Shown here one piece after another: positions 1-56,336 of a stretch of DNA of 64,000 nt. The first letter of the stretch is position 1, and each line of letters starts with the position of its first letter. The position numbers and the translations under genes are program-made. The notes under the pieces were generated by a model. That model ran no database searches. It saw only the letters and a program-made list of their open reading frames with translations, and was not told the origin of the DNA. This DNA is from an uncultured virus (IMG/VR IMGVR_UViG_3300037843_000309) (Duplodnaviria; Heunggongvirae; Uroviricota; Caudoviricetes). The DNA lies in the IMG/VR virus record IMGVR_UViG_3300037843_000309; one strand, given 5' to 3'.

Positions 1-1026
1 ATCACCGACGACGACCTCTACCCGCTTTTCCATGGCAACACGGTCGAGGGGAACGCGCCCATCGATTTCACCCAGGAAGCCAAGATTCGGCTCGCCTACT
101 TCTCTCAAGAAGTGTGGTTCACCTTCAAAGATACGCTGGGGGCACAGCAGGTATGGATTTACGAGCGTGCGCAATCGTGGGTATACGACCGGCCAAAACG
201 CCGCTGGCGCCAGGCGAGTTACCCTTGGGGACCGCTGTGCATTTACCCCATGCCGCTTGAGTTCCAGCAGGGGCAACTGAATGTGGCCGGATCGAGCAAT
301 ATCCTTCTGTTCGGAGGAAATGACGGCAACGTCTACAAACAGGACCCGAACGACGCCACGTTCACCGACAACGGCACGGCGATTTCCTGCCTCATGCGCA
401 CCGGGGCGTTCGATTTCGAGGATCCGCAGCAGTGGAAAGAGTTTGTTTCTGTGGTGCTGGACTACATCGGGAACGGCGCGAGCATCACGCCGACGGCGCT
501 CTACAATGACGAGGCGACCAGCGTCGCGCTCCCGGCGGTGACAGGCGGCGCGAACCGCGCGCAGCAGGACATGACGCTCTCCGACACCTACGCGCGATCG
601 TTCTCCTTCCAGCTTGCGTGGGCGGCGTCGGTTGCGGTGACGATTGAAGGGTTTGAAATCGCGTGGCGCCCGGACGAGATGCCGGTCACGCACACCGAAG
701 TCCCCGCGAACGCCTTCGACATGCCGGGTTACGGCCACCTCTATGACGGCTACATCACTCTGCGCTCGAATGACGTGGTCAATGTGAATTTCTACACCGA
801 GGACCCGAACGGCTACGCGCCAGCACAGATTCAGGTAGCATCGACCGGCGGCCAGCGCCAGCGCATCTACCTGCAATGCGGCCCGAACAAGTCGCGGAAC
901 TTCCGGGTGTCGCTCGATAGCGCCAGCACCACGCCTTTCCGAGTGTACGCGGAGGATAGCTACATCAATATCATGCCGTGGGGAGCAATTACACCGACGC
1001 CGGTTCAGTTGCCGTTCGCGTCGTGA
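1..1026 (+). CDS. Virion structural protein, 5'-truncated (tail tubular/nozzle-like)
   Basis: Frame 1 is open from base 1. Beta-rich sequence with 'LLFGGNDGNVYK' and 'MRTGAFDFEDPQQWKEF' motifs, which recall podovirus tail/head-stabilising proteins. Lies in the structural block. Confidence 0.55.
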   Translation: MTDDDLYPLFHGNTVEGNAPIDFTQEAKIRLAYFSQEVWFTFKDTLGAQQVWIYERAQSWVYDRPKRRWRQASYPWGPLCIYPMPLEFQQGQLNVAGSSNILLFGGNDGNVYKQDPNDATFTDNGTAISCLMRTGAFDFEDPQQWKEFVSVVLDYIGNGASITPTALYNDEATSVALPAVTGGANRAQQDMTLSDTYARSFSFQLAWAASVAVTIEGFEIAWRPDEMPVTHTEVPANAFDMPGYGHLYDGYITLRSNDVVNVNFYTEDPNGYAPAQIQVASTGGQRQRIYLQCGPNKSRNFRVSLDSASTTPFRVYAEDSYINIMPWGAITPTPVQLPFAS

Positions 1027-8067: not shown

Positions 8068-11000
8068 GTGCCGACCGATACCGCACAGAACCCGATCATC
8101 GACAAGGTTCGCAACGACCCTGAGTTCTATTCGTTGCCCGCTGACGCGCAGCGCCACGTTTGGGGAACCCTCGACCCCGAATTCAAGTCCCTCCCGCTAA
8201 GTGACCAGGACTACGTCCTTCGCCAACTTCAGAGCGATTACTCCACGCGCAGCAGCGCGCGCTCCGCCCTCCTGAAGAAGCAGGGGTACAAACCCGAGCA
8301 AGTCGAAATGCTCATCTCCGGGCGCGACAAGAATGCGCGGCCGGTGGCCCCCGGCGCGAAGCCCAGTGCAGGCCCTGCACCAGCACAGCCTGTCGCGGCG
8401 CATGCGCCCTACATTCCTCCGCCTCCGCCTGTTTCATCCGAACAGCCGTTCCGGATTGGTATGGGGGCTGAGGTTCCTGTCCTTGAGCAGACCTCGCAGG
8501 CGGTACGGCGGGATCAACCAATGATTCCTGCCAGCGAAGCGGTTGCTTCTGCCGGAAAACTCCCCGACTATGCGACTACTCCACTAAAAGCTGTTGTTGG
8601 TATGGGGGGAGGCCTTGCCGACATCGTCAGCACACTCAGTAAACCATCCAATCTAGGGCTCCTAGCCGGAGCCATGATGACACCGTGGACCAGCATTCCG
8701 CGCATCATCAAGATATTGACCTCTCTAGGCTTTTCCTATGTTAATGCCAAGGGTGCGGCTGAAGATTTTGTAAAAGCGTACCAAGCTTACGAGCGTGGGG
8801 ACACACAGGAATTGTCCCGATACGGAACTGCCGGTCTAGTGCAGGCCTTGTTTTCGTATAAGGCCGCCAGTGGAGCCGGAAAAACAACCAAAGAAGCGGT
8901 TGAAGCTGCAAAGCGCGGTGGTGGCGGCGGTGGAGGGAAATCTCCCACCACTCCACCCGGTGGAACCACCCCAATTCTCGACGACATTGTTGCTCAGGAA
9001 GAAGCAAGGCTTCGTTCCGATATTGACAAATTGAAACCAGAAGATCGGTTGCCCGGCATCAACAACATCATCGACCAGACCCAAAAACAGCTTGATGCCG
9101 CAGGGAAGTCTCTGGCGGCCGCCAAATATCGCGCCACCCTGCAAGCAGCAAAGGCTATTGCCGACCAGCTTCTGAAAACCCCCGGGCAATTGAATCCGAA
9201 GGGTGCCGCTGGCAAAGGTGCAGCGGGTGGTGGTGGCGGAGGCGCCGCTCCAAAGGCGGAAGAAACCCCTGAGAAGAAGATCGAGTTTGTCGAAGGCCCC
9301 AACGGAACCTTGCAGATTGTCGAGGTTGAGGTTAAACCCGAAACGGAGGGCGCAAAGACTCCCCCGGGCGCTCCGCCTCCCACGACAAAGACTCCGGTGC
9401 AGGAATTCGACCTCCAAACGCTTGCGGGTCGGCAGCAATTTTTCAACCTGCCACCGGCGCAGGCGGCCAAACTTCCCGATAAGTTCTGGAAAGAGTGGGT
9501 GAAAGGCCAAGTCCCGGGTCATCCCGCGATTGCAGCCGCCACCAAGCTTCGCGAGGAAGCCAAGAAGCCCGCTGGCCCAGCAGGCCCACCCCCGGGCGAA
9601 GCCACACCCGAAGCGATTACCGCCGAGAAGCTCCGCATCTCGACCCTTTTGGATCCCCAAGCGGAAACCAAGGACAGCATCGCCCAGGTACAGGCCATCT
9701 CGAAGCAGGCGCTCACCGACATGGAGAACGCCCGGGCCAAAGGCGACTTCGAGGCGATGGCGAAGCACCAGGCAACCGGGAAAGCGGCAATCGAGGTCAT
9801 TAAGTCCCTGCAAACCCCGGCGGGAAGGCGCAAGCGCGGCGAGAAGCCAAAAACTGAGGCTCCGGCCCCGGCAACCACGCCAACTCCCGAAACGAAGCCT
9901 ACGACCCCTGCTGCGGAAGCGCCAAGGGGTCAGATTTCGACGCAACCGCCCGAGGTGCCACCAACCCCTATACCAGAACCGGCTCCCGCCCCGCCCGAGG
10001 CACCCCCCGAGCGCCGCGGGAAGGGGCGTCCGGACATCGAGGGGATGGCGGATCCCGACCTTCAGGCGTTTGTGACCGGCCTCACGCAGCGCCAGCGCGT
10101 CGGCCCCGCCCTCACCCCCCGGGAAGAGGCGATGCTGGCACAGGGGAAGGCGGAACTGGACAAGCGGGAGAAGGCAGCTCCGCCGGAAGCCCCCGGAATT
10201 GTGTCTCTGCGGGAAAACTCCAAGAAGCACGTTGACGACTTGGCAAAAGAAGGTACGGTCATCCCGTCCAATATCATTGTTGATTCTGTGTGGGGGAGGG
10301 ACAAGAACGGGAAATGGTCGCTTCGGGTATTTGACGAGTCCAGTGACCCGACGTTTGGCCGAGCACTTCCCATTGAAGTTGGCCCCGGCGATGACGTTGC
10401 GGAAATTGTAAAGGCGGCACAGGAAAAACAGCCGAAGGCTCCCTCACCTGCCCCCAGTGCAGGCCCTGCACTGGCTCCGCCCGTCTCACCCGAACCCCCC
10501 GGCGTCTCGCCCAAGCCACCTTCCGTCTCAGGGGGAGGGGGAACCGTCTCACCATTGGCTGACACATCATCTGAGCAGGAACTCCCGGCTCATATACCCG
10601 AAGGGCTACCGCCCACCGGGCCTGCGGCTACCAGTGTGGAAACGAAAGATTCATTGGCTCCGTTTGGCGTTGATGTCGAGGTAAAGTTCCCGCCATCTCA
10701 GGAAACAAGGGGTGGACTCGCTAAAGCGTCACGGAATCCTATCCTGAAAAAGCAGTTCAAGCGGCTTGGAATTACAGGTTTTTCCATCGAAGAACCGTAC
10801 AAATTCGATCTGTCGGAACAGGGGAATATCGAGCGCGGAACGGGTGTTATTCGGTTGAATGCGATAGCTGATGACCCCGAACAGACCCTCGCCCATGAAC
10901 TCGCCCACGACATTTACGAGCGCCTTGACCCGGTGGTACAGGCGCGAATGCGCGACTACATTGAATCCAATCACATCGAAGCGCAACACGCTGGCGGGAT

Positions 11001-14000
11001 GGAAGAGCGCATCGCTGACTATTTCGCTGACGTGATGACGGGGAAGGTTGTCGCTCCGTCGGGGATTGCCGATACGTTTCTTTCGTCTCCACTCAGGCCC
11101 CGCGACAAAAAATCCAAACCCCAGCGCGAAGTGGCCACGCCAGAACCAATTCCAGTTGTGCGGTCATGGGATGAAATCAGGAAGGGTGGCGGGTTCATCA
11201 CGGAATCGGACGATCTTGCGGCAATCACCAAAAAGTATGGCGAACAACCAATCGTCATCAAAGACGTGAACGGGTGGCGGTCGATACTTCCTTCATCCGC
11301 AGCCGCGAAGCTATTAAGCACTTCCGCAGCGGGGTATGTCCGCGCCGTATTCATTCCGGCCGCCACGAATATTGACCCGAAGACGGTGGAAATTGACACG
11401 TCCATACCTGAATTCGGGAAGGCTTTAAAGGAAGCGGCGAAGGCCCTCCCAGCGCATCCCGGTCAAGGCGCTCTCTATTCCGGTTTTGCAGCTTTGGAGA
11501 ACCTCAAGCCACGAGAAACCGTTTCCAACATCATCAAGCAGGGCGTCACCGCAACCGAGTACACTATCCGCATTGGCAAGATGGGGGCGCAAGCCGTCAA
11601 GCAAGCCTTCGACATCGACAAGTACCTGAAATACAAGGGTGAGTTCGGCGGGGACGTGGTTGCCGCCTTCCGCCGCCTCGCCGCCGCACGCAGCTACGCC
11701 CGCTTCTACCGCCCCTTCTGGGAGTTCTTCGGGGGCGGAAACAAACTCACCGAGGAAGAACTCGACCTCACCGGGCGCTACTTCCTGTCGCTCCGCAAGG
11801 CGGAAATGAACGAGCGGGGCATCCCGGCGAATGCCATCCCCGAACTCTCGCCAGAGGATTTGGTTAAGGTCCAATCGAACAAGGCCATCCAGAAGTTCAT
11901 CAAGTTCTACGTCGACAGCATCTACCCCATGGTGGAACAAGACCACATGGAGGCGGGCGTCGAGTGGATGTCGAAGGCGGAGATTTACTTCCCCATCGTG
12001 CGTCGGCGCGTCTCGGAGGATGGCGAAATCGCCTACGCCCCCCTACTGATGCCGTTTGGACTTCCCAAGACGGGCTTCGCGCGCAAGGCCATGGGCGAAG
12101 ACCTGGGGCCCGGGTGGGAACTGGTCACGAACCCCCTCGAAGCGATTGAGGCAGCCGCACAGCGCACCTCACACCTTGCCGCACAGCGCAATCTGGCATC
12201 GACGCTCAAGGGTTCCGGGCGCGCGCTCGTCTCCCACCAGGTTGTACGCCTGTCGCACGCTATCGCGTCGAAAGACCCAGGCTCCGTGCAGCGCGCTATG
12301 AAAGAAATGGGGTTGACCAAGGAGAAGGCGCAGAAGATTTCTCACCTCGTCCAGCGCGGCCACGGCTCGCCGGCGGAAATCGCGGAAGCGCTTCTTGGCG
12401 GATCGACGGTGCAGGTATGGTTTGGGACGCCGATTGACGACTCGAACCGCATCATCGATGGCCACAAGGTCAAGATTGGGTGGATTAAGCTGGGGCGCGA
12501 GATGCGCGACATCTCCCACATGGAGAACGTCTCCCCGGAACTGGCCGAAAAACTCAAGGCCGACGCCTACGAGCGGTTCTTCGAGGAATACGGGCCCAAC
12601 CTCCGCAAGCTGGTGGCGGAGGAGCCGGAAGAAATCCAGCACTTCGTGCGCGCCCCTCTTGGACGTGAATACGTCGACCTCATTTACCCCAAGTGGCAAA
12701 CCTCGCACGATACCGCCCTCAAGGCACTCAAAGGGGACGCCAAGGCGCTTCAGGAGATGCGGTCGGCCGATGTCATGGCGTTCCTGTGGTCAAACATCCG
12801 CAACGTGGCGGTGGGCGCGCGCCTTGCCAGCCCGTCAGCTATCATCTGGCACACCAACCGCCTACTGGGCCTGAGTCTACCGATCGTCGCGGCCAACTCT
12901 CCCAAGGTGGCGCAGAAGGCCGCGGCGGTAATCCCGCTACTCAATCGCTTCAATGCCCTCTACCGAATGAAGGGGATTGCCAAGACCAAGGAAGGCATCG
13001 AGATGTCGAAGCGCCTCGCACGCATCGGTGCGCTCCGCCCCGAAGCCTTCGAGCAGAAGTCGGTCGACGCCTTCCGCCGGATATTCCAAGCCTTCGATAC
13101 GGCGCTGGGTCGGACGGTGGCGGGGATCGCCGGCGGCGTGATGGGGAGTGCATACGGTGGGGGTGGGGCGATTGCCGGCGCGGCGCTTGGCACCATGGCA
13201 CCTCACATCCTCGAATGGCTGGTCAAGATCCTCGACGTCCCGCGGCAATGGATATTCGGGTTCGAGGGACTCGATATGGACGCCCGGGTGTACGCCGGCC
13301 TCTTCGTCGACTGGTGGTACCGCACGCACGACGGGAAGCCCGCCACCGATGACGAACTTGCCACTTTCGCGATGCAGAACTACGGCAACTACATCTCCGC
13401 GATGCAGACGAACGCGGTCAAGTTCCTACGCGAGACAGGCGCTCTCCCGTGGGCATCGTTCCACGCCGGCGCCATCCCGACCGAACTCGCGCACTCGATT
13501 GGCGGCAGTCTGAGAATCCCGAAACGTCCCGCCCCACCCGGTTTGCCTCCTTTCTCCGGCGGTGGTGGAATCCCGAACGAGCCACCTCCGCGCATCCCCT
13601 CCGGACCGGGCGTCAACCAGAAATGGTGGCAGCGGATCGAAACTTGGTGGGTGGCTACACTCGGGTCGCTCCTTGCCGCGGCGGTTCTGAATAAACTCTT
13701 GAATGGCAAATGGTCACACGAAGAGGACGAAGGCCAGCAATTCAAGATCCACATTCCTGTGGGCGACCAGTTGTTGGTCGTGGACGATTCGTTCCTTGCG
13801 CCGGAAACCATGCGGCCGTTCCGCATCTCCGGGGAAAAGGCGCTTACCGAAAGGATTATGGAAGGGGAGAGGGATCCCGACGCTTACATTTCGTCCACCA
13901 TGCGCGATTGGGTCAACTTCACCTTGCAGGAGTCGGCGCAAAGTCCAATATGGAAGCCGGGATTCATCTTCGCCTTCGGCAAAGAGCCGTACCTGCGACA

Positions 14001-14700
14001 GGATTGGTCGCTTGGCTCCGCCGGCGTCGATACAGGCGACCCGCTTCCGCCCCGAGCGCACGCGAAGGCCGCGCTCATCAATACCTGGCCGTTACTCCAA
14101 AGCGCCTTCCCGCGAGGATACAGCAAGGTTCAAGACTTCTACCTCCAAGCAATCCTCGACCAGTTCGGCCAGAGCGGCCGGCTTGTCGACATGGAGGATA
14201 ACGACCGGAATGTCCAGTTCGGTAAGGTCGCTGCGGTGCGGGAAATGGCGAAGGGGGTGGCGCAGGAGATGTTCCACCTGCCCAACGACCAGCGCCGGGC
14301 ACAGTACGATGAGCGGCTTTCGCATGTGCACGCCGACCTCCGGCCAGCCTTTTCCCGGGAAGTGGCTAAGATGCTGGGAGCGTTGTTCTATGGGTTGGCG
14401 GAGGATACCAACGAAACCGACCTCGACGCGAAGATTGCCAGCCGGGAGTCCTACGGACTGTTTCGCCGACTCGCTCGCTACGAAAAGGACTCAGAATCGA
14501 TTCGCAACGACAAGGCATTAACCCACCAGCAGAAGCAGCAGAAGTACCGCGAGAATGACGACAAGATGCAGCGGGACATGGATTTGTTCTTCAAGCAGAC
14601 GGAGGGACTCAGAGCACCTGAGCCTCCGCCAACCGGGGGGAACCCGTTTAACGACCTCATGCACCGCTTGGGGATTGGCCCGCCGGAAGGTAGGATGTAG
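8068..14700 (+). CDS. Giant internal virion/DNA-ejection (polyvalent) protein with zincin motif
   Basis: 2210 aa. Pro/Gly linkers, HELAH...EERIADYF metallopeptidase motif (about 10894-11030), helical C-terminal half. Confidence 0.7.
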   Translation: MPTDTAQNPIIDKVRNDPEFYSLPADAQRHVWGTLDPEFKSLPLSDQDYVLRQLQSDYSTRSSARSALLKKQGYKPEQVEMLISGRDKNARPVAPGAKPSAGPAPAQPVAAHAPYIPPPPPVSSEQPFRIGMGAEVPVLEQTSQAVRRDQPMIPASEAVASAGKLPDYATTPLKAVVGMGGGLADIVSTLSKPSNLGLLAGAMMTPWTSIPRIIKILTSLGFSYVNAKGAAEDFVKAYQAYERGDTQELSRYGTAGLVQALFSYKAASGAGKTTKEAVEAAKRGGGGGGGKSPTTPPGGTTPILDDIVAQEEARLRSDIDKLKPEDRLPGINNIIDQTQKQLDAAGKSLAAAKYRATLQAAKAIADQLLKTPGQLNPKGAAGKGAAGGGGGGAAPKAEETPEKKIEFVEGPNGTLQIVEVEVKPETEGAKTPPGAPPPTTKTPVQEFDLQTLAGRQQFFNLPPAQAAKLPDKFWKEWVKGQVPGHPAIAAATKLREEAKKPAGPAGPPPGEATPEAITAEKLRISTLLDPQAETKDSIAQVQAISKQALTDMENARAKGDFEAMAKHQATGKAAIEVIKSLQTPAGRRKRGEKPKTEAPAPATTPTPETKPTTPAAEAPRGQISTQPPEVPPTPIPEPAPAPPEAPPERRGKGRPDIEGMADPDLQAFVTGLTQRQRVGPALTPREEAMLAQGKAELDKREKAAPPEAPGIVSLRENSKKHVDDLAKEGTVIPSNIIVDSVWGRDKNGKWSLRVFDESSDPTFGRALPIEVGPGDDVAEIVKAAQEKQPKAPSPAPSAGPALAPPVSPEPPGVSPKPPSVSGGGGTVSPLADTSSEQELPAHIPEGLPPTGPAATSVETKDSLAPFGVDVEVKFPPSQETRGGLAKASRNPILKKQFKRLGITGFSIEEPYKFDLSEQGNIERGTGVIRLNAIADDPEQTLAHELAHDIYERLDPVVQARMRDYIESNHIEAQHAGGMEERIADYFADVMTGKVVAPSGIADTFLSSPLRPRDKKSKPQREVATPEPIPVVRSWDEIRKGGGFITESDDLAAITKKYGEQPIVIKDVNGWRSILPSSAAAKLLSTSAAGYVRAVFIPAATNIDPKTVEIDTSIPEFGKALKEAAKALPAHPGQGALYSGFAALENLKPRETVSNIIKQGVTATEYTIRIGKMGAQAVKQAFDIDKYLKYKGEFGGDVVAAFRRLAAARSYARFYRPFWEFFGGGNKLTEEELDLTGRYFLSLRKAEMNERGIPANAIPELSPEDLVKVQSNKAIQKFIKFYVDSIYPMVEQDHMEAGVEWMSKAEIYFPIVRRRVSEDGEIAYAPLLMPFGLPKTGFARKAMGEDLGPGWELVTNPLEAIEAAAQRTSHLAAQRNLASTLKGSGRALVSHQVVRLSHAIASKDPGSVQRAMKEMGLTKEKAQKISHLVQRGHGSPAEIAEALLGGSTVQVWFGTPIDDSNRIIDGHKVKIGWIKLGREMRDISHMENVSPELAEKLKADAYERFFEEYGPNLRKLVAEEPEEIQHFVRAPLGREYVDLIYPKWQTSHDTALKALKGDAKALQEMRSADVMAFLWSNIRNVAVGARLASPSAIIWHTNRLLGLSLPIVAANSPKVAQKAAAVIPLLNRFNALYRMKGIAKTKEGIEMSKRLARIGALRPEAFEQKSVDAFRRIFQAFDTALGRTVAGIAGGVMGSAYGGGGAIAGAALGTMAPHILEWLVKILDVPRQWIFGFEGLDMDARVYAGLFVDWWYRTHDGKPATDDELATFAMQNYGNYISAMQTNAVKFLRETGALPWASFHAGAIPTELAHSIGGSLRIPKRPAPPGLPPFSGGGGIPNEPPPRIPSGPGVNQKWWQRIETWWVATLGSLLAAAVLNKLLNGKWSHEEDEGQQFKIHIPVGDQLLVVDDSFLAPETMRPFRISGEKALTERIMEGERDPDAYISSTMRDWVNFTLQESAQSPIWKPGFIFAFGKEPYLRQDWSLGSAGVDTGDPLPPRAHAKAALINTWPLLQSAFPRGYSKVQDFYLQAILDQFGQSGRLVDMEDNDRNVQFGKVAAVREMAKGVAQEMFHLPNDQRRAQYDERLSHVHADLRPAFSREVAKMLGALFYGLAEDTNETDLDAKIASRESYGLFRRLARYEKDSESIRNDKALTHQQKQQKYRENDDKMQRDMDLFFKQTEGLRAPEPPPTGGNPFNDLMHRLGIGPPEGRM

Positions 14701-15449: not shown

Positions 15450-15731
15450 CTACTTGGAAAGTTCTTCGTATGGAACAATCTCCCAATCTTCCGAGAGAAT
15501 GTCCGGCTGATTCGCTAACCACCCCGGTTGGTGTTTTCCTTGAGCGTTGAACATGCAAATGCACGGCCCGTATTCACGCCTCTGTACCCGGAAAATTCCC
15601 GCAGCTTTGACGTTTGGAATTTCGTAGGACAACTGATCTTCTAGGTAGATGTGCATATTCTTGCCGTTCCACCCAGCCCTCCGCACACATTTTCCAGCCT
15701 TTAACGCTCTAATCGCATCTCCAAAATCCAT
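15450..15731 (-). CDS. DUF2829-family protein (Tad2-like anti-defence sponge)
   Basis: MDFGDAIRALKAGKCVRRAGWNGKNM...GWLANQPDILSEDWEIV signature. GAGGAGG RBS. Confidence 0.8.
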   Translation of the reverse strand: MDFGDAIRALKAGKCVRRAGWNGKNMHIYLEDQLSYEIPNVKAAGIFRVQRREYGPCICMFNAQGKHQPGWLANQPDILSEDWEIVPYEELSK

Positions 15732-16056
15732 GTTTCCTCCTCTCGCCGTCCGCCCGTCGCGGACTGGCATCTTGCTGAACTGGTGCCGCCTCGCCACAAC
15801 GCCTCTAAGCACCCTATGAGTCCTCGGTGTCGGCTCCGGTGTGCGATATGAGCAGCATCGCGGCTCGGCGGCATAACTTGTGTGGGTTAATTAAACGGCT
15901 CTCGCTACCCCGCCCTCACGAGCCTCGTTAATCTGAGCAAGGCCCCATTGGACTGCACCACTCATAGTTAAACTGAGGAGTAGTCCAACTAGGTAAAGCC
16001 GTGCTCGGAATCTGTTTGTCAAGTGGCTTCACCCCCCTTCCTTCGCTGGTTGCGGC

Positions 16057-24546: not shown

Positions 24547-25467
24547 TCACGGCTCCTCCGGTATCGCCTGCGGCACCGGCGACACAGACTCCCACGGTAT
24601 TTTGAATTCTTTGCAAATGTCCTGCATGATTGCGTGCTTCAAATCGATCGTGAACTTCCCGAAGTCCTGCCGCATCGTCACCTTCGCCTTGAGGCTGGCG
24701 GTGTATTCGAGAAGTCGGTACCATGCGTGTTGCTGCGCGTTCGCGAAGCCAGCGAGCCGCGCGTGCTCTTGGGCGTTCTCATGCTCCCGCTCCTGGCGGT
24801 ACGCCATCACCATGAGGTGGAGGATTTCGGCGTCCGACGGCCCATCGCCAAACTCGACTTGGCGCCCATAGTTCAGGTCGTCCATGAGGTCGAGGACTGA
24901 TTCTTCAGGTCCATTGACTTTGTAGGTTCGGCCTGGGCCTGGTGCGTGACTTGGGTTCCCCTTGAACAACCTCCGATCCACTTCTAGGCGGACGTTATCG
25001 GCAGTGTTTTTTTCTGCGTATTCGAGCAGTTCGGTTGAAATCTCGTTTTTTGCTTCGGCCATGGGAAGAAGCGCCTTACACTTCTCGATGCGAAGCTCAA
25101 CGACTTTCGATTGGCCGATAAGAGGAACCACTTTCCGCCCGATGCGAGCATAATAAAATCCGGTGCTAACCTTTCCAGCGGTTCGCATGGATTCCCGCAG
25201 CGGCTCCATGCGGTTCAGCCACCATTGGCTGTACTGAAAGAATCCTCCGATGGCTGTCCCGACGGGTTTGGACTGAAACCTTTCGTACATCTCTCCGCAC
25301 AAGACTGAAAGCTTTGCAAGAGCCTCGCCACTGTCGATATTTCTAACTACCTGCTCATTGACAATGGTTTTAACTTCCTCGTCCAGTTCTTTTTCGTCCG
25401 CCGGAGCCATCCATTGGGTAGCCTTGGTTAACTCTCCGAAGGACTCATAATTTTGTTTGTCATTCAT
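24547..25467 (-). CDS. Hypothetical protein
   Basis: Roughly 306-aa ORF whose ATG overlaps the stop of the Mom-like gene. Confidence 0.55.
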   Translation of the reverse strand: MNDKQNYESFGELTKATQWMAPADEKELDEEVKTIVNEQVVRNIDSGEALAKLSVLCGEMYERFQSKPVGTAIGGFFQYSQWWLNRMEPLRESMRTAGKVSTGFYYARIGRKVVPLIGQSKVVELRIEKCKALLPMAEAKNEISTELLEYAEKNTADNVRLEVDRRLFKGNPSHAPGPGRTYKVNGPEESVLDLMDDLNYGRQVEFGDGPSDAEILHLMVMAYRQEREHENAQEHARLAGFANAQQHAWYRLLEYTASLKAKVTMRQDFGKFTIDLKHAIMQDICKEFKIPWESVSPVPQAIPEEP

Positions 25468-26069
25468 CGAAGCGCCTTTTCCCATCTGACTTTTACCGAA
25501 GAAATTGCCTCTGGTCCGTTTATGTTTTTGGCCTTTCCCCCCTTTCGCGAGTAGCTGTTTCCTTTATTCGAGGTGTTTCCTACCGTCCATCCTGCTGCCT
25601 TGTAGATGGTTCCTTTGTGAACTTCCGTGTCTTGGTACGAGATTATTCTTTCTCGATCAGGATGATGCTTCCTGAAATACCTGACGATCCAAGCCAAAAA
25701 CTGGGAAGCTCCATTTCTCGGCATCTCTGGCGCGCATGCTAATCGGCATAACTCAATCCAGTGGCGCGGAAGGTATAGGCTCGACGGGCGTCGGCAGATT
25801 GCTACTGCGTAAGAAATATCTCCACTGCGGGCATGAAAGGAAAATTCAATACCTACGTTCGGCATTAAAGGCAGTCTGCTGTGCCAAAGCTTATTGAGGT
25901 ATATGGCGAACGGGATGCGACAAGGCTCATATACCAAGTCCTCAAGTTGGAGCGTGGAGGCTGGACTCGAACCACCCCCTTCCGCCTGGAAAAGCGGATG
26001 TGCCACCCGGCCACCTTCCACGCCAGTAACAGGAAGAAACGCTCTAATTCTTGGGCTCGTTCCTTTCAT
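25464..26069 (-). CDS. mom: Mom-family (GNAT-fold) adenine-modification enzyme
   Basis: WHSRLP...IELCRLAC...PRNGASQFLA...IISYQDTEVHKGTIYKAAGW...KVRW matches the Mom/XF1762-like signature. ATGA overlap with the upstream small ORF. Confidence 0.8.
   Translation of the reverse strand: MKGTSPRIRAFLPVTGVEGGRVAHPLFQAEGGGSSPASTLQLEDLVYEPCRIPFAIYLNKLWHSRLPLMPNVGIEFSFHARSGDISYAVAICRRPSSLYLPRHWIELCRLACAPEMPRNGASQFLAWIVRYFRKHHPDRERIISYQDTEVHKGTIYKAAGWTVGNTSNKGNSYSRKGGKAKNINGPEAISSVKVRWEKALR
25948..26023 (-). ncRNA. tRNA-Gly(TCC)-like cloverleaf embedded in the mom-like CDS
   Basis: Perfect 7-bp acceptor stem GCGTGGA/TCCACGC, discriminator T and CCA. Anticodon stem TCCGC/GCGGA around TTTTCCAG. T-loop TTCGAGT. 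Confidence 0.7.
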
Positions 26070-26194
26070 GTACGGCACGCCATCTCCTCCTCGGACGTGA
26101 GGTTGCGAATCACCTGCTCGGCCACGATGCGCTTGACCTCGCGGTCGATGGCGGCAGGGTCGAGCGTCGACAATTCCTGGTGCAGGTGCTGCAC
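26066..26194 (-). CDS. Small hypothetical protein (42 aa)
   Basis: GTG start lies inside a palindrome copy, with a GGGAG RBS. Stop overlaps the mom-like ATG. Confidence 0.4.
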   Translation of the reverse strand: MQHLHQELSTLDPAAIDREVKRIVAEQVIRNLTSEEEMACRT

Positions 26195-26197
26195 TGG

Positions 26198-27007
26198 CTA
26201 CTCCCTCGGGAATTCTTGGATTCTCAAATCTTCCGGCCATTCAGCGGGATTCATTCGCTTGTCGGGGTGTCCCCCTAACTGTTTCAGAAAGAACTTCGCG
26301 TAGCATCGGCGGCAATCATCCCGAACACGGCGAGCCCATTCAATATCGAAGGGTCTGAAACGGGTTCCAGACTCTCCGCCACCAATGACCCAGTCGAGGT
26401 AGGGTGGCGGGTTGACTGGCAACCCTTGACACCCGCACTCAAATCCACTGCAACACTTTTCGGCCATATACAGGGAGAAATCGACGTACCCGAGCGCTGG
26501 CTCCCAACTCACGGCATGGATAGTCGCGGGTACAGCCATCAGCTTTTCGAGCCTCCACAAATACTCTTTGGATTCAACTGTGGTCATCAGCCACACATTT
26601 GCGCGCGGATGGTCGATCCACCACGAGGGCAACATACGCGAGTAGTTTCCGGGGCGCTTAGAGAGCAACATCCATATCAGATGGGGAGTTTCCTCCACCA
26701 GCTTCCAAAGCCGTTCTCGCGACTCGTCAAGGTCGCGGCGATCTTCGAGGATGTCGCACATCGAACCGCAGAAAACCTTTACCGATGCCCCCCCTACCTT
26801 CTTCACTCGGTCATTCCAGCGCCGGGGCTCGTTCCAGTGTTTTTCGTCAAAGAATCGGCGCGGAGATTCCTTCCCCCAGATATCCAAGGCAAGTCGATTA
26901 GCGAACCCTTCCGCGTAGCAGTGGTCACACCCGGGCGATACGTTCGTGCAACCCCACCAAGGGTTAAAGGTTGCGTCAGTCCAAGAAATCTTAGATTTTT
27001 CTGCCAT
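26198..27007 (-). CDS. DUF5131 (phage Gp37/Gp68, radical-SAM-like) protein
   Basis: SKISWTDATFNPWWGCTNVSPGCDHCYAE...VFCGSMCD...SWEPALG...DWVIGGGESG...FFLKQLGG. Confidence 0.9.
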   Translation of the reverse strand: MAEKSKISWTDATFNPWWGCTNVSPGCDHCYAEGFANRLALDIWGKESPRRFFDEKHWNEPRRWNDRVKKVGGASVKVFCGSMCDILEDRRDLDESRERLWKLVEETPHLIWMLLSKRPGNYSRMLPSWWIDHPRANVWLMTTVESKEYLWRLEKLMAVPATIHAVSWEPALGYVDFSLYMAEKCCSGFECGCQGLPVNPPPYLDWVIGGGESGTRFRPFDIEWARRVRDDCRRCYAKFFLKQLGGHPDKRMNPAEWPEDLRIQEFPRE

Positions 27008-27011
27008 ATTT

Positions 27012-27200
27012 TTAAGGCACCTTCTCCACGTAGATTCGTTCCAGGATTTCCTTCTGCTTGTCGCTCAACCACTGGCGGCGATCCCACTGGTCGGAAATGT
27101 CCTCGATGAACTGGCATTCCCAATCGGTCAGGCGCTCAGTGTTGTCGGCGCATGCCGAAATGACTTCGCCAATGCGGTTTGGGTCAAGCGTGTTGCTCAT
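27012..27200 (-). CDS. Hypothetical protein
   Basis: MSNTLDP...LTDWECQFIEDI...LSDKQ, a small-protein motif common in phages. Confidence 0.5.
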   Translation of the reverse strand: MSNTLDPNRIGEVISACADNTERLTDWECQFIEDISDQWDRRQWLSDKQKEILERIYVEKVP

Positions 27201-27427
27201 AGTTTCGGTGTTCCTGCGGCGGCATGGGGCTTGCAGTAGTCGAGGTTGTCTCCGACGCGAGTCGCGCAGTCGCGGCACTGCCAGCGGTCACAGGTCTGCA
27301 TCCGCCCGTTGCGCCTCACAGGGTAGTCGCATTGGATTGTCCCCGGCTTCCCGCAGGACTCGCAAGGCTTCGCTCGACTCGGCCCACGGCTACAGATAAT
27401 CATTCCGTTCCGGTGTTCGCAGGGCAC
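27197..27427 (-). CDS. Cys-rich Zn-finger protein
   Basis: CESCG...QCDYP...TCDR..C..C...DYC..H. Confidence 0.55.
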   Translation of the reverse strand: MPCEHRNGMIICSRGPSRAKPCESCGKPGTIQCDYPVRRNGRMQTCDRWQCRDCATRVGDNLDYCKPHAAAGTPKL

Positions 27428-34252: not shown

Positions 34253-34327
34253 TGGTGGGGATGGAGGGGTTCTAACCCTCAGCCTATCCGTTAAGAGCGG
34301 ATTGCTCTCCCTTAGAGCTACACCCCC
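34253..34327 (-). tRNA. tRNA-Lys (anticodon CTT), atypical T-loop
   Basis: GGGGGTG TA GCTC-TAAGGGA-GAGC A ATCCG-CTCTTAA-CGGAT AGGCT GAGGG-TTAGAAC-CCCTC CATCCCC A CCA. All four stems pair and CCA is encoded. Confidence 0.85.
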
Positions 34328-47073: not shown

Positions 47074-47519
47074 GAATTTACGTGGCTAGTTCATGGCGAA
47101 ACACCTTCCAACCTTCGGTTGTCGCGGCGTTGCGCTACGACGGACATGAGGTTTACGACTTCATGGATTCCGAGGGTTTCCATTGGACAGAGGTTGACCC
47201 CGACTGGAAGGCTTGGCCCAGCGACATTTCCAAGTACCTTTCGGGATTGAGCCATCCATGCGCCGAGCGGGGATTCGATCGCGACATGACCGCGCTTCGA
47301 GAGTGTGAGGCGTGCGTCTACGTGATGCCTTGCGGGGTTTCGGCAAGTTGGGAAGCGGGATGGGCGAAGGGCGCGGGAAAGCCAGTCTTCGTTTACGTTC
47401 CGGGATTGCGTGAACCCGACCTCATGGTGAAGATGGCAGACCTCGTTACCAATGACCTAAGCATTATCCGTGAACTCCTGAAATTCAATTCAGTTCCTGC
47501 ACAGACGGAGACAAAATGA
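47070..47519 (+). CDS. Nucleoside 2-deoxyribosyltransferase/NMP glycosylase-like protein
   Basis: RIYVASSWRN...GHEVYDF...GFDRDMTAL...PCGVSASWEAGWA.G.GKPV. GTG start after an AGGAGG RBS. Confidence 0.7.
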   Translation: MRIYVASSWRNTFQPSVVAALRYDGHEVYDFMDSEGFHWTEVDPDWKAWPSDISKYLSGLSHPCAERGFDRDMTALRECEACVYVMPCGVSASWEAGWAKGAGKPVFVYVPGLREPDLMVKMADLVTNDLSIIRELLKFNSVPAQTETK

Positions 47520-48400
47520 CTCAAGACGAAATCCTCAATCTCAAGCGCAAGGCGAACTGGGTGCGGCGCACGGTACTCGACATGGCGGTGCGCGCACAGT
47601 CGGGCCACGTCACCACAGCGTTCTCGCTGACCGAGATGTTTGTAGCGCTCTACCACGGCATCCTGCGTTTCGACCCGAAAGACGTCAAATGGCCGGGCCG
47701 CGACCGCTTCATCCTGTCCGAGGGGCAGGCGGGGATCGGCCTCTACCCGGTGCTGGCGGACGCGGGATTCTTTCCGGTGGATGAACTCAAGAACTTTGTG
47801 CAAGAAGGAAGCCACCTGGGGGTACATGCGGAACCGCAGATTCCCGGCATCCAGGTGCTTACCGGGTCGCTTGGCCATGGCCTCCCCATCGCGACCGGGA
47901 TGGCGGATGCGGGGAAGGTGGACGGAGCCGACTGGATGGTGTTATGTCTGGTGGGCGACGGCGAGTTGTGCGAGGGGTCGAATTGGGAGGCGCTCATCAC
48001 GGCATCGACGCTCCGCCTCAACAACCTCGTCGTCATCGTCAACCGTAATCACCAGTTCACGATTGGGTTCAACGACCGGCGGGAGACGCAGCGGGATGTG
48101 TACCTCGACCCGATTCCCGATAAGTTTCGGTCTTTCGGGTTCGACGTGTATCGAATCGACGGCCACAACTTCGAGGAAATCGACCAAGCGTTTGGCAACA
48201 TCCGTGAAGTTTCCGCCCACGCCGCAAGGCCCCTCTGCATCATCGCGGAAACCGAAAAAGGTCACGGCGCAGTCGGCATCGCAGGCCAGCGCATGTGGCA
48301 CTACCGGGTTCCGGCGGGGGACGATTTGAAGCGGATTATGGACGGGCTTGACGCCGAGGCGGTCGAACTGGGGTGTGCAGCACCTGCACTGGAGAGATGA
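47516..48400 (+). CDS. Transketolase-like TPP enzyme, N-terminal subunit
   Basis: SGH, RDRFILSEG, TGSLGHGL, TPP motif GDGELCEGSNWEA...N, IDGHN, TEKGHG. Confidence 0.9.
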   Translation: MTQDEILNLKRKANWVRRTVLDMAVRAQSGHVTTAFSLTEMFVALYHGILRFDPKDVKWPGRDRFILSEGQAGIGLYPVLADAGFFPVDELKNFVQEGSHLGVHAEPQIPGIQVLTGSLGHGLPIATGMADAGKVDGADWMVLCLVGDGELCEGSNWEALITASTLRLNNLVVIVNRNHQFTIGFNDRRETQRDVYLDPIPDKFRSFGFDVYRIDGHNFEEIDQAFGNIREVSAHAARPLCIIAETEKGHGAVGIAGQRMWHYRVPAGDDLKRIMDGLDAEAVELGCAAPALER

Positions 48401-48603
48401 TGAGCTTCAAAATCCAAGTTGTTAAGAAGAACGGAAAAGTTGATTTCGTCTTTCAGGGAGACAAGTTGGCGGTGTTCCGAACCCGTAAAAAGGCAGAGGA
48501 GCAAGCCGAATTCCTTCGCATGGGAGTAGGAGACGAGTACCAGAGCATCAGCGTCCTCCGCTGCCCACCCTATCAGGCCGACAGAGGTGGAAATGACAAC
48601 TGA
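48397..48603 (+). CDS. Small hypothetical protein between the transketolase halves
   Basis: ATGA overlap. GGAGA RBS follows a palindrome copy. Confidence 0.5.
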   Translation: MMSFKIQVVKKNGKVDFVFQGDKLAVFRTRKKAEEQAEFLRMGVGDEYQSISVLRCPPYQADRGGNDN

Positions 48604-49543
48604 GACCCAAGCAACCCCCTTCATCATGGGCATGCGCGACGCCTACTTCACCAAGCTCTACGAGATTTTCCAGTCCGACAAGAAGTGTGTGTTGCTGAGT
48701 GCAGACGACGGCGCTCCCACTATGGACCCAATTTCCGCGCTTCCCAACCAATTCCGCAACGTCGGCATCGCGGAAGAACAGATGATTGGGATGGCCTGCG
48801 GCCTCGCGCTCGAAGGGAGGAAGGTGTGGGTCTACGCCATCAACCCCTTCATCGTGTTTCGGGCTCTCGAATTCCTGAAACTCGATATGTGCGCCATGAA
48901 CCTACCCATCACCGCCATCGGCGTGGGGGCGGGCTTCGCCTACGACATCATGGGGCCGACACACCATTCGGTTGGTTCGATCCCGTGTTTAAGGTCGTGG
49001 CCGAACCTCACCATCTATAGTGTTGCGGACAGCGACACCGCCGCACTGATCCCCGAACTGAATTACGAGCGTGGGGGGCCGCAATACGTCCTGATGGACA
49101 GGGTTCCCCTGCCCGCCCTCTACCCGCCGCGGCGCCCAAGTTTCCGGCATGGGTTTGGGGTGGTGGGGGTGGGAACGGATGGGTACATAATCGCGCACGG
49201 CATCATGGTGCATCAGGCTATCAAGGTGGCGGCGGCGCTCGGGAAAAAGGGAATCTCGCTTGGCGTCATCGACCTGTTCCGCATCAAGCCGGTTGAGTCC
49301 AAACTCCTGATGGATATTCTCCACCATGGGCGTGTCGCCGTTACCCTCGAAGAGGAATACGTGAATGGCGGGGTTGGCAGCATCGTGGCGGAAATCTTTG
49401 CGGACGAGGGGTCGCGGCTTCGCCTGCTTCGCATCGGCCATCCCGACAGGTTCGTGTTCGACATGGGGGGGCGCGAAGCGATTTGGCGGCGAAACGGGCT
49501 TGACGTCGAATCCGTCGAAAAGAGGATTCTCGAATGGCTATAG
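48587..49543 (+). CDS. Transketolase-like TPP enzyme, C-terminal subunit
   Basis: MRDAY, LSAD, NVGIAEEQMIGMACGLA, GPTHH, TLEE...GGVGS. Confidence 0.9.
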   Translation: MEMTTETQATPFIMGMRDAYFTKLYEIFQSDKKCVLLSADDGAPTMDPISALPNQFRNVGIAEEQMIGMACGLALEGRKVWVYAINPFIVFRALEFLKLDMCAMNLPITAIGVGAGFAYDIMGPTHHSVGSIPCLRSWPNLTIYSVADSDTAALIPELNYERGGPQYVLMDRVPLPALYPPRRPSFRHGFGVVGVGTDGYIIAHGIMVHQAIKVAAALGKKGISLGVIDLFRIKPVESKLLMDILHHGRVAVTLEEEYVNGGVGSIVAEIFADEGSRLRLLRIGHPDRFVFDMGGREAIWRRNGLDVESVEKRILEWL

Positions 49544-49678
49544 TAAAGAAAAAGAAGAATAGTAGGTACGAAAGTATTATCAATGGAATGGTTGGGAGTA
49601 TTGTCGATCACGTCTTGCGCCTTCCCCATAAACAGCAAAGACTGATAATGCGAAGACTCAGAAAGTTCAAGGTTGGAA

Positions 49679-50281
49679 ATGATAAATGAGGCGGTCATCC
49701 TGTGCGGGGGACTGGGCACGCGGCTGCGAAGCGTCGTATCCGACCGTCCGAAGTGCATGGCGGAAGTGGCGGGGAAGCCATTTCTTGAGCACGTCGTTGG
49801 GCATCTTCGCGGGCAGGGGATTTCGAGGGTTCTGTTCTGTATCGGGTATATGGGGAGTGACATCTACAAGCACTTCGGCTGGATAGGGGAAGGGATGGAA
49901 TTCGATTACTCTATCGAAGAATCCCTCATGGGAACCGGGGGGGGGTTACGGCATGCTTTTCCCGACATCCAATCCAATACAGTCTTAGTTCTAAATGGCG
50001 ACACGTATTGCGAATTCAGCCTAGAAGTCCTCGAATACTGGCACTTGAAATGGAATGCTTTCACTACCCGCGTAATGTACGAAGGTCTGAGCGCCGGGGT
50101 TTATCTCATGCAGCGGAGAATCATCGAGATGATCCCGCAGGGACGACCTGTGTCTCTGGAAAAGGAATTCCTGCCATCGTTTTTCGTCCACCAAGTTCAC
50201 ACTGCGATGCCATTCCTCGACATCGGAACGCCAGAGCGCTACGCAGCGGCAGAAGAATTTCTAGTGCAGCACCTGCACTAA
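49679..50281 (+). CDS. hddC: Sugar-1-phosphate nucleotidyltransferase (HddC-like)
   Basis: AVILCGGLGTRLRSVVSDRPKCMA.V.GKPFL, GTGG, LNGDTY, SLEKE, FLDIGTPE.Y. Confidence 0.8.
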   Translation: MINEAVILCGGLGTRLRSVVSDRPKCMAEVAGKPFLEHVVGHLRGQGISRVLFCIGYMGSDIYKHFGWIGEGMEFDYSIEESLMGTGGGLRHAFPDIQSNTVLVLNGDTYCEFSLEVLEYWHLKWNAFTTRVMYEGLSAGVYLMQRRIIEMIPQGRPVSLEKEFLPSFFVHQVHTAMPFLDIGTPERYAAAEEFLVQHLH

Positions 50282-50288
50282 GGGAAGA

Positions 50289-51275
50289 TTGATGCGAGTT
50301 CTCATCACAGGCATCACGGGAATGGTCGGAAGCCACTTGGCCGACTACATCCTCGCGAATCACAAGGCGGTGGATGTTCATGGGTTGATTCGCTGGCGCA
50401 GCCCACTCGACAACATCCGTCACATTCAAGGACGCATCTCCCTCCACCAGGCCGAACTCCGCGACCTAAACTCGCTCATCGTCCTGCTTCGGAAGGTAAA
50501 GCCCGAATGGATTTTCCACCTCGCCTCGCAGTCCCAGGTGGATGCGAGTTTTCTCGCGCCCGCCGACACGATTCACACCAACGTCATCGGCACCGTCAAC
50601 CTGCTCGATGCGATCGGAATTGCAGGAATAGACCCAAAAGTCCACGTTTGCAGTTCGTCGGAAGTTTACGGGCAGGTGAGCGAGAACGAAATTCCGATTC
50701 GGGAGACAAACCCCTTCCGGCCGGCGAGTCCCTATGCGGTGTCAAAGGTGGGTGAGGACATGGCCGCGTACCAGTATTTTCTCTCCTACGGGATCCAGAC
50801 GGTCAGAACGCGGATGTTTACGCACACCGGCCCGCGCCGCGGCGACTTCTTTGCCGAAAGCGCTTTCGCCAAGCAGATTGCGCAAATCGAGGCAGGACTC
50901 GAGTCCAACCCTGTCATGGTCGGAAATCTTGACAGCGTGCGTACGTTCTGCGACGTGCGGGACGCGGTGAGGGCATACTGGATGCTCATGGAGAAGTGCC
51001 CGGCGGGAGAGGTTTACAATATCGGTGGGACCCGCACAATGACGGTGGGAGAGATGCTGGAGATTTTTAAGGGGATGGCAAGGGTCAAGATCACCCATAA
51101 GGTCAGCGCTGGCTTGCTTCGCGCATCTGACGTCACCCTGCAAATTCCTGATACATCGAAGTTTCAGTCGGTTACGGGATGGGAACCAGAAATCCCGCTT
51201 GAGACAACGCTTCGCGATCTGATGAACTATCACAGGGACAAGATTCGCGCCGAAGGAGTTTCTGGAAACGCATAG
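50289..51275 (+). CDS. GDP-sugar 4,6-dehydratase (Gmd/GDP-heptose dehydratase-like SDR)
   Basis: LITGITGMVGSHL, HLASQS, SSSEVYG, PASPYAVSK, FTHTGPRRG, GNLDSVRT. Confidence 0.9.
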   Translation: MMRVLITGITGMVGSHLADYILANHKAVDVHGLIRWRSPLDNIRHIQGRISLHQAELRDLNSLIVLLRKVKPEWIFHLASQSQVDASFLAPADTIHTNVIGTVNLLDAIGIAGIDPKVHVCSSSEVYGQVSENEIPIRETNPFRPASPYAVSKVGEDMAAYQYFLSYGIQTVRTRMFTHTGPRRGDFFAESAFAKQIAQIEAGLESNPVMVGNLDSVRTFCDVRDAVRAYWMLMEKCPAGEVYNIGGTRTMTVGEMLEIFKGMARVKITHKVSAGLLRASDVTLQIPDTSKFQSVTGWEPEIPLETTLRDLMNYHRDKIRAEGVSGNA

Positions 51276-51302
51276 TGCAGGTCCTGCACTGAGGGGGAAA
51301 CG

Positions 51303-56309: not shown

Positions 56310-56336
56310 TGCAGGACATGCACTGAGGAAATAGGA

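Follow-up and report, generated by a model that had tools for sequence, protein, structure and literature searches.

A 76-nt RNA element resembling tRNA-Gly lies in the 5' coding part of a Mom-family DNA-modification gene in the stretch analysed here, 64,000 nucleotides of DNA from an uncultured virus (IMG/VR record IMGVR_UViG_3300037843_000309; Caudoviricetes), hereafter called the window. The element belongs to a conserved family of deformed, tRNA-Gly-like RNAs with a physical link to Mom genes, and its cloverleaf is under RNA-level selection. The family retains the known bacterial identity elements for glycyl-tRNA synthetase (GlyRS) while departing from decoding tRNAs in the anticodon loop and T stem, and we give a little better than an even chance to the reading that the element is a putative glycine donor, non-ribosomal and encoded together with Mom. 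A tRNA-Gly-like pseudo-tRNA embedded in mom has been known since 2011 (McMurdie et al., 2011, BMC Genomics 12:287, PMC3146451); what is new is the proposed functional link to Mom chemistry. Phage Mu Mom moves glycine from Gly-tRNAGly to adenine N6, accepting all three Escherichia coli isoacceptors and rejecting Gly-tRNAAla (Silva et al., 2026, Nat Commun 17:4787, PMC13219725; 2023 preprint 10.1101/2023.03.24.534169), so that the donor which a preliminary description of the window had named is in print. The parts of the element and its host gene are as follows.

25948..26023, minus strand: Mom-embedded, deformed tRNA-Gly-like RNA element of 76 nt, from the sequence and a match to covariance model R2 (RNA position i is window position 26024 - i)
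26017..26023, minus strand: 5' strand of the acceptor stem, GCGUGGA, with GlyRS identity bases G1, C2 and G3 (sequence reading)
25986..25993, minus strand: anticodon loop of 8 nt, UUUUCCAG, with UUCC at 25988-25991 (sequence reading)
25959..25976, minus strand: T arm, GGUGG-UUCGAGU-CCA[G]CC, with a single bulged G at 25961 (sequence reading)
25948..25958, minus strand: 3' strand of the acceptor stem, UCCACGC, discriminator U73 (25951) and encoded CCA (25948-25950) (sequence reading)
25464..26069, minus strand: Mom-family open reading frame (ORF) from ATG 26069, 201 aa plus stop (ORF list, Pfam Mom)
25539..25769, minus strand: match to Pfam PF25680 (Mom), profile positions 65-141 of 202 (E 4.3e-13; 49.8 bits against a cut-off of 27.1)

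The minus strand from 26023 to 25948 reads exactly as the preliminary description had written it, and the perfect 7-bp acceptor stem, 8-nt anticodon loop, bulged T stem and encoded CCA to which it drew attention are all present. The acceptor stem (GCGUGGA/UCCACGC) forms seven of seven pairs, the D stem three of four and the anticodon stem five of five, and the first and last bases of the anticodon loop are able to pair (U.G), giving a 6-bp stem with a 6-nt loop. Five T-stem pairs surround one bulged G, next to which the C-G pair of the family is changed to U-A, and the T loop is UUCGAGU, without the TGC or TGT hallmark of the staphylococcal tRNAs discussed below. With the anticodon taken as UCC within the 8-nt loop, the copy has the complete GlyRS set of G1-C72, C2-G71, G3-C70, U73, C35 and C36. 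It occupies codons 16-41 of the Mom ORF (bases 47-122 counted from ATG 26069) and is stop-free in that frame, and the Pfam match (PF25680, E 4.3e-13) upholds the earlier claim that the cloverleaf lies inside the 5' coding part of a Mom gene.

Model R2, which was built from 19 relatives with the window sequence left out, recovers exactly 26023..25948(-) from the whole 64-kb window at 72.0 bits (E 2.5e-16), with a second-best match of 10.2 bits (E 2.2); model R1, whose seed sequences include the window, scores the copy at 81.1 bits. ARAGORN leaves the element uncalled, its sole report in the window being a tRNA-Lys at 34253-34327. The best Rfam match for the element is a tRNA-Sec below threshold (26.8 bits against a gathering value of 47, E 0.007), with nothing at gathering, and the window's true tRNA-Lys reaches 64 bits on RF00005 for comparison. 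The copy lacks the canonical tRNA criteria, having a loop of 8 rather than 7 nt and an interrupted T stem. The ARAGORN and Infernal searches suggested in the preliminary description thus return no standard tRNA call and a clear match to the family-specific model R2, in line with its remark that annotation overlooks such an element.

Nine viral contigs encode relatives of the window Mom at 34-48% identity, and at the Mom start of six of these nine ARAGORN reports a tRNA or 'tRNA-???'. A profile search added 10 loci from genomes and 80 from viruses, the latter being the best 80 of 181 relatives. Across 94 sources, R1 gave 51 matches, 50 of them at a Mom start and one distal (locus L067), which represent 41 distinct sequences, including 40 distinct copies embedded in Mom genes. 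The distinct copies are all 76 nt long, except those of L018 (79 nt) and the distal copy of L067 (74 nt), and carriers include a Bacteroidota and a Solirubrobacterales metagenome-assembled genome (MAG). The distal copy of L067, at 722-795 (+), is bulged, lies ~570 nt upstream of the Mom ORF (1369-2118) and overlaps the 3' end of an ORF at 437-823; it has no CCA and an odd T loop, and the N-terminal copy of the L067 Mom gene itself is decayed.

Searching with the signature rather than the protein, the bulged T-arm plus acceptor pattern was found in at least 120 IMG/VR stretches, of which 80 loci were fetched, some on contigs shared with the protein-first set. Mom genes contain or adjoin the pattern in 74 of these 80 loci, which were arranged as listed here, two further loci falling in no class.

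In frame at the 5' end of a Mom ORF: 63 of 80 loci, 27 in the WHS subfamily of the window and 36 in other, more Mu-like subfamilies
In frame at the 3' end of a Mom ORF: 9 of 80 loci, with Pfam Mom in 8 of 8 tested and the profile stopping ~30-45 residues before the stop codon
Free-standing directly upstream of a Mom ATG: 2 of 80 loci (L110, L177), with Pfam Mom in both
Beside another GNAT protein: 2 of 80 loci, L102 (Acetyltransf_1, E 6e-6) and L152 (a shorter homologue without a family)
3' halves only, beside a DNA methylase or TET-associated glycosyltransferase: 2 of 80 loci (L155, L174)

Pfam Mom was matched in all 15 of the 5'-embedded loci sampled (E 1e-10 to 1e-39). The same T-arm pattern without its bulge gave only two IMG/VR matches, both fragments with no full tRNA and neither adjoining Mom. 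In L102 and L152, full-length copies of the element adjoin mutually homologous GNAT proteins other than Pfam Mom. L155 and L174 have the pattern at 601-629 and contain no more than the 3' half of the element, i.e. the bulged T arm, acceptor 3' strand and CCA, with an N6/N4 DNA methylase (L155) or TET-associated glycosyltransferase (L174) in the place of Mom; these half-copies could be remnants left after a swap of the modification module.

The tRNA features that are kept and lost were counted over the 40 distinct Mom-embedded copies. GCG/CGC is found at pairs 1-72, 2-71 and 3-70 in 38, the discriminator is U73 in 35 and A73 in five, and CCA is encoded in 37. C35C36 is present in 40/40, as it is in the second, signature-first set (52/52, 8/8 and 4/4), where base 34 varies between U, C and A and the anticodon loop ranges from 5 to 11 nt. 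Table 1 of PMC9976931 gives G1-C72, C2-G71, G3-C70, U73, C35 and C36 as the bacterial tRNA-Gly identity set, the same as the preliminary description had listed. Anticodon loops of the 40 copies have 8 nt in 32 cases, 7 nt in seven and 11 nt in one, and every T stem has a one-base bulge in its 3' strand, between pairs 51-63 and 50-64, the base being A in 39 copies and G in the window. The T loop carries TTC in 25 copies, TGC in 10 and another sequence in five (TGT in one). When the D loop is read together with the T loop, GG/TTC occurs 19 times, AG/TGC 10 times and GG/TGC never, an association that points to covarying bases at the 18-55 elbow contact. In 3'-embedded copies the anticodon loop is 7 nt long and contains CCC, ACC or UCC, and positions 32 and 38 form a Watson-Crick pair. 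In two element-carrying MAGs, the embedded copies score 82.7 and 73.9 bits and the next matches, host tRNAGly included, no more than 46 bits; the host tRNAGly genes of these MAGs have no bulge and no encoded CCA.

Constancy of CC alongside changes in base 34 and loop size is what one would expect of charging rather than decoding. Phage-encoded tRNAs are common, and the element could be an ordinary phage tRNA-Gly for translation that overlaps mom in a compact genome and refills a glycine tRNA pool drained by Mom or lost to defence nucleases. Canonical 7-nt loops with anticodon UCC in seven of the 40 copies, and the calling of several as tRNA-Gly by ARAGORN, agree with such a role, which is nevertheless improbable given the 8-nt loop with pairing ends in 32 copies, the 11-nt loop in one, the bulged T stem in all 40 and the occurrence of A at base 34 in 3'-embedded copies. 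Scores on RF00005 are only 28.7-47.2 bits for six relatives and sub-threshold for the window copy, against 64 for the window tRNA-Lys, and no decoding role would explain the Mom linkage in 74 of the 80 signature loci. The bulge lies in the region of the T-stem base pairs that govern binding of elongation factor Tu (EF-Tu). As it is the T-stem sequence that governs EF-Tu binding (PMC3239215), a bulge within this stem is suggestive of weak binding.

Homologous mom genes, to which the preliminary description had looked for a test of the fold, retain the pairing through compensatory changes. When 16 copies were aligned without gaps in MAFFT, standard pairs filled 98.3% of cells, compared with 77.9% when shuffled and 39-51% when slid; 15 of the 22 pairs vary on both sides, and none of 500 shuffles equalled the observed score. 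Alignments of 41 and 67 distinct rows, both fitted to the model, agree on the covariation, and compensatory double changes that alter the encoded amino acid are found in 15-18 of the 22 pairs. All six pairs of the anticodon arm covary, as do the T-stem pairs flanking the bulge, and the cloverleaf is approximately the minimum-energy fold in 22 of 41 copies. One of the six anticodon-arm pairs joins the two end bases of the loop (UA 11, CG 4 and UG 1 among the 16 copies), so that the nominal 8-nt loop amounts to 6 nt closed by a 6-bp stem. Inside the element, entropy is flat across codon positions (0.85/0.98/1.02), and it has the usual coding pattern in the next 53 nt (1.37/1.04/1.74). Nucleotide variation in the element therefore tracks RNA structure rather than codon position. 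A reading of the element as an attP or integration site is ruled out by the full-length copies, the covarying 5' halves and a location in mom and not beside an integrase.

Suppressors of the sufD type have 8-nt anticodon loops, and a +1 frameshift-suppressor tRNA that reads a four-base codon (GGAA or similar) would fit the 8-nt loop of 32 of the 40 copies, as well as the upstream start of locus L006, which is one base out of the mom frame. We regard this as barely credible: the covarying first and last bases (UA 11, CG 4, UG 1) leave a 6-nt loop, loops of 5, 7 and 11 nt occur within the same family, and the bulge falls in the part of the T stem whose sequence governs EF-Tu binding (PMC3239215). 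No recurring four-base site was noticed in the phage genes, none having been specifically sought. At L006 (~2884-2910) a good Shine-Dalgarno sequence and ATG stand just 5' of the element, out of frame as stated, and the sole in-frame ATG is within the D loop.

Another possibility is that the element is a fossil, in which a tRNA gene was overprinted by the mom ORF and only the N-terminal peptide is conserved, the RNA being functionless. Mom homologues without the fold do keep the peptide (D/P)LF...P.SP(K/R)(E/Q)L, with unchanged spacing to the WHSRLP motif, and a 20-residue N-terminal deletion lowers the activity of Mu Mom despite this region being unstructured (PMC13219725). A fossil is already hard to hold, however, and is very improbable, as the compensatory double changes in 15-18 of 22 pairs alter amino acids, third codon positions inside the element are no freer than the others, the same RNA is found at either end of mom and free-standing, and the encoded peptide is predicted to be disordered. 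In the 5'-embedded loci sampled, the Pfam Mom domain begins at residue 27-33, right after the 26 codons encoded by the element. AlphaFold2, run on a 40-sequence alignment, gives residues 1-38 a predicted local distance difference test score (pLDDT) of 45-62 with no secondary structure and models the GNAT core confidently (>90), so that the element-encoded peptide looks like a passenger in the predicted structure.

The element is also accommodated to the reading frame. Forty of the 41 distinct copies are stop-free in the Mom frame and share a single register in which G1 is the second codon base, the window included; in the two alternative frames, only eight and three of the 41 lack a stop. Between A76 and the WHS motif lie 53 nt in 36 of 38 loci, and 62 nt in the window and L011. 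Two sequence classes of the element exist, in which +1 in the D loop goes with -1 in the anticodon loop, and since these offset each other and the lone length variant is +3, indels keep the frame. An in-frame ATG stands upstream of the element in 36 of 40 first-set loci and in 42 of the 58 distinct loci of the 5'-embedded signature set, 35 of these 42 having it 1-13 nt before G1. A start codon downstream of the element was rejected as the general case, there being no in-frame ATG, GTG or TTG before the WHS motif in 20 of 38 evaluable loci and, in the second set, none within 15 codons after the element in 18 of 58. In the window the Mom frame is open up to 26240 (ORF 25464..26240, -), and ATG 26069, which overlaps the TGA stop of an upstream 42-aa ORF and lies 46 nt before G1, is the likeliest start. 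The other candidates are GTG 26021 and GTG 26006, both inside the element, and TTG 25937, the sole one downstream, which is poorly placed, a single base separating it from its GAGGA.

The thrS operator mimic, and mascRNA, which is cut from MALAT1 by RNase P, are tRNA-shaped folds within longer RNAs. Such folds are either bound as mimics or excised by tRNA-processing enzymes, as has been proposed here for the Mom element; these two differ in being untranslated, and they are not known to carry a full aminoacylation set with CCA for an enzyme of the same RNA or to be substrates of that enzyme, as the Mom element would be. As tRNA-like operators of the thrS type exist, the fold might stay in the mom mRNA as a cis-acting mimic that controls expression and is never a glycine donor, whether by blocking initiation at the start codon, by recruiting RNase P to destroy the message, or by binding Mom or GlyRS for feedback. 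The start codon position 1-13 nt before G1 (35/42) is in keeping with this, as a folded acceptor stem should hinder initiation, and in Mu, Mom is toxic and tightly regulated, with Com opening a hairpin at the mom start (PMC3378877, PMC6483171). A purely cis-acting role is nonetheless unlikely, since nine of 80 copies are at the 3' end of mom and two free upstream, where they are unable to gate initiation in the same manner. Six covarying anticodon-arm pairs and the retention of C35C36 and U73 would be needless if only the acceptor end were read, and CCA is encoded in 37 of 40 copies though the host tRNA genes examined have none.

In the reading that is preferred here, the element would be transcribed within the mom message, fold, and be excised by host tRNA-processing enzymes, with RNase P acting at its 5' end and 3' trimming to the CCA. 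Host GlyRS would load it with glycine, and EF-Tu and the ribosome would bind the charged RNA poorly, for which the T-stem bulge and the 6/8-nt anticodon loop are the proposed reasons. The charged element would then serve as the private glycyl donor of Mom for N6-adenine modification of phage DNA. A donor is preferred to a purely cis-acting mimic because some copies are free-standing or lie at the 3' end of mom, and because the anticodon arm and C35C36 stay constant against a varying base 34 and loop size. For 5' copies both readings could apply together, and there a fold beside the start codon should compete with initiation. With the start codon usually 1-13 nt before G1, folding and excision on the one hand and translation on the other should be mutually exclusive for any one mRNA, which could hold the level of Mom low relative to its donor. 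A more specific form of this proposal, plausible to us at somewhat less than even chance, is a dual-coding gene in which the same DNA would provide the first or last ~26 codons of Mom and the gene for its own orthogonal, non-ribosomal glycine carrier; each transcript would be either translated or cut, the phage would thereby set the ratio of enzyme to donor, and an EF-Tu-proof pool of Gly-tRNA would be available in any host. The preliminary description had offered a dedicated donor and an autoregulatory mimic side by side. Its interpretation stands in part: the embedding, identity set, Mom chemistry, staphylococcal parallel and covariation all hold, and between its two options the 3'-end and free copies favour the donor, short of proof.

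Several points weigh against a private donor. The chemistry does not require one, as Mu Mom uses all three host tRNAGly isoacceptors (PMC13219725), and excision of a 5'-embedded copy would part the start codon from the rest of mom. For charging, GlyRS would have to tolerate both the bulge in the T stem and the 6/8-nt loop. The bulge may have been frozen in by chance, a one-base change there shifting the frame, and the free-standing copies that retain it came from a pattern which required it. Conservation of UUCC may be partly at the protein level, the LF motif persisting in Mom N-termini without the fold. The window copy is itself among the least canonical of the family, with a G rather than A bulge, a D stem of three pairs and a competing fold; folded alone, its cloverleaf (-25.7 kcal/mol) is 8.1 less stable than the alternative (-33.8 kcal/mol). 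Within the window's subfamily the fold is present in 41 distinct Mom cores and decayed or absent in 29 (70 in all), so the structure is dispensable in some lineages. The mom region of phage Mu has no element (best R1 score 7.7 bits). Among 277 cultured-phage records with Mom homologues found by tblastn, the four inspected (Microbacterium phage Lifes, Aeromonas phage AsSzw2, Halovirus HGTV-1 and Exiguobacterium phage vB_EauM-23) also have none (R1 with filters off, ≤9.6 bits), and a 36-nt T-arm query of cultured phages returned nothing convincing.

A 221-nt query of cultured phages found only generic tRNA-Ala similarity in T5-like phages, and a mom-region DNA search of GenBank phages gave no match. 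The Mom tree requires at least nine changes in carrier state, two of them forced by well-supported branches. With a midpoint root and no outgroup, carriers fall on both sides of the root; the window has a long branch and an uncertain position. Vestiges of the element often persist in non-carriers, namely the peptide (D/P)LF...P.SP(K/R)(E/Q)L and sometimes the anticodon hairpin too, which fits an old element that has repeatedly decayed. Residues ~25-50 of Mu Mom (L100, 1108-1800), with ...GSKELRVETIS...KHYSRR, align loosely with the ...SPKEL...WHSR motif, which belongs to Mom genes that carry or have lost the element. Mu mom might thus descend from an element-bearing ancestor, the residues being too few to judge.

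The closest known counterpart is in the ssrA genomic islands of Dehalococcoides, where a 76-bp tRNA-Gly-like 'pseudo-tRNA' lies within the first 150 bp of a mom homologue (McMurdie et al., 2011, PMC3146451). The account given there reports an apparent anticodon 'DCC', proposes no function and notes that it is usually labelled a pseudo-tRNA. Like the window element, it has 76 nt, resembles tRNA-Gly, sits in the 5' part of a Mom homologue with variable base 34 and fixed CC, and is mislabelled or missed by annotation pipelines. The window element differs in its source, an uncultured peat phage, in its divergent Mom subfamily (WHSRLP...SYQDTEVH), in beginning 46 nt after the ATG, and in its G bulge. 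Among 151 sampled Chloroflexota genomes, three small ones (1.4-1.5 Mb; G011, G024 and G036) have 76-nt matches in Mom ORFs, in the codon register of the family and with a bulged A in the T stem; on the strength of these three genomes, the family is probably the same as the Dehalococcoides element. The pseudo-tRNA was treated there as a primer target and a curiosity of an integrative island (PMC3146451), at a time when the tRNA dependence of Mom was unknown. No paper was found in the literature that joins the 2011 pseudo-tRNA in mom with the use of Gly-tRNAGly by Mom reported in 2023 and 2026.

A functional parallel is offered by Staphylococcus aureus and S. epidermidis, whose NP1-3 are non-proteogenic tRNAGly species and glycine donors for FmhB, FemA and FemB (PMC7826273). 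They are described as charged by the normal GlyRS, poorly bound by EF-Tu and the ribosome, and preferred by the Fem transferases. Like them, the Mom element would be an additional species of the tRNAGly(UCC) type reserved for a tRNA-dependent aminoacyl transferase, and both have an extended anticodon stem with a small loop. The staphylococcal T loop has TGC or TGT for TTC, as do 10 (TGC) and one (TGT) of the 40 Mom-element copies, so the parallel drawn in the preliminary description is real and closer than it had claimed, about a quarter of the family having TGC. The staphylococcal tRNAs differ in that they are free-standing chromosomal genes of bacteria outside the transferase gene, whereas the Mom element is embedded; their acceptor is a peptidoglycan precursor and not DNA, and their function has been shown at the bench where that of the Mom element is inferred. 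No T-stem bulge is described for them (PMC7826273), in contrast to its constancy in the Mom element.

Mu Mom itself belongs to the same Pfam family (PF25680) as the window protein, and its co-substrate is a glycine-charged tRNAGly, as is proposed for the window Mom. The match of the latter to Mu Mom chain 8bv8_A is weak (phmmer, E 0.098). In that alignment, with Mu residue numbers inferred from an offset of 10, R, S and D stand opposite Mu R111, S124 (A in the crystal) and D149, and would be their equivalents, with E opposite the essential R151. Mu differs in using host tRNAs, in having no embedded element and in regulating mom through Com. The main texts of PMC13219725 and the 2023 preprint mention no linked tRNA gene.

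The genes on either side of mom in the window appear to be related to each other.

26066..26194, minus strand: 42-aa ORF directly upstream of mom, matching the N-terminus of the 312-aa ORF (BLASTP, 47% identity over 34 aa, E 1e-7 in a single comparison)
24547..25485, minus strand: 312-aa ORF directly downstream of mom, with no Pfam family (ORF list, Pfam)

The 42-aa ORF seems to be a leftover N-terminal piece of the 312-aa gene, with the 312-aa ORF as its probable full-length counterpart. The element and mom thus have a remnant of one gene on one side and a complete copy of it on the other, an arrangement of the kind expected if mom had arrived as a cassette. The window has the look of an uncultured phage and encodes a primase-helicase, an SNF2 helicase, a Tad2-like protein, DUF5131, and Dam and N6/N4 methylases; no GlyRS or CCA-adding enzyme was found among its proteins at E 1e-5. 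The four sequencing runs that contain its DNA are peat metagenomes. A scan of 25200-27300 gave no promoter-like and no terminator-like sites, which is uninformative on a separate transcript.

Elsewhere in the window, a protein with a Tad2-like (Thoeris anti-defence 2) domain (PF11195, E 7.6e-23) is encoded at 15453-15812 (-), a counter-defence gene in addition to mom. A block at 47516-58768 (+) contains split transketolase-like genes, an NTP transferase, a GDP-mannose-dehydratase-like epimerase and a GHMP kinase, along with an N6/N4 DNA methylase, Dam and two B12-binding radical SAM proteins, and may be a second, sugar-based DNA-modification pathway. A 2210-aa ORF at 8068-14697 (+) has no Pfam family at E 1e-5.

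These findings expose a gap in annotation, as ARAGORN fails on the window and labels many relatives 'tRNA-???', and gene callers miss the element too. If the element is a private glycine carrier of Mom, a complete tRNA can be written in frame within a protein-coding gene, at either end, and engineering would gain a natural tRNA that keeps its synthetase identity with decoding features lost. Assays suited to the donor link are already in print. A dual-coding gene, if that is what this is, would be the first dedicated aminoacyl-donor tRNA for nucleic-acid modification and a natural orthogonal tRNA scaffold, charged by GlyRS yet ignored by the ribosome. To our knowledge, the principle of the non-proteogenic tRNA is known only from staphylococcal cell-wall synthesis. 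Should the element be the glycine donor of Mom, this principle would extend to phage DNA hypermodification, and phages would be able to glycylate thousands of adenines late in infection without contesting Gly-tRNAGly with EF-Tu.

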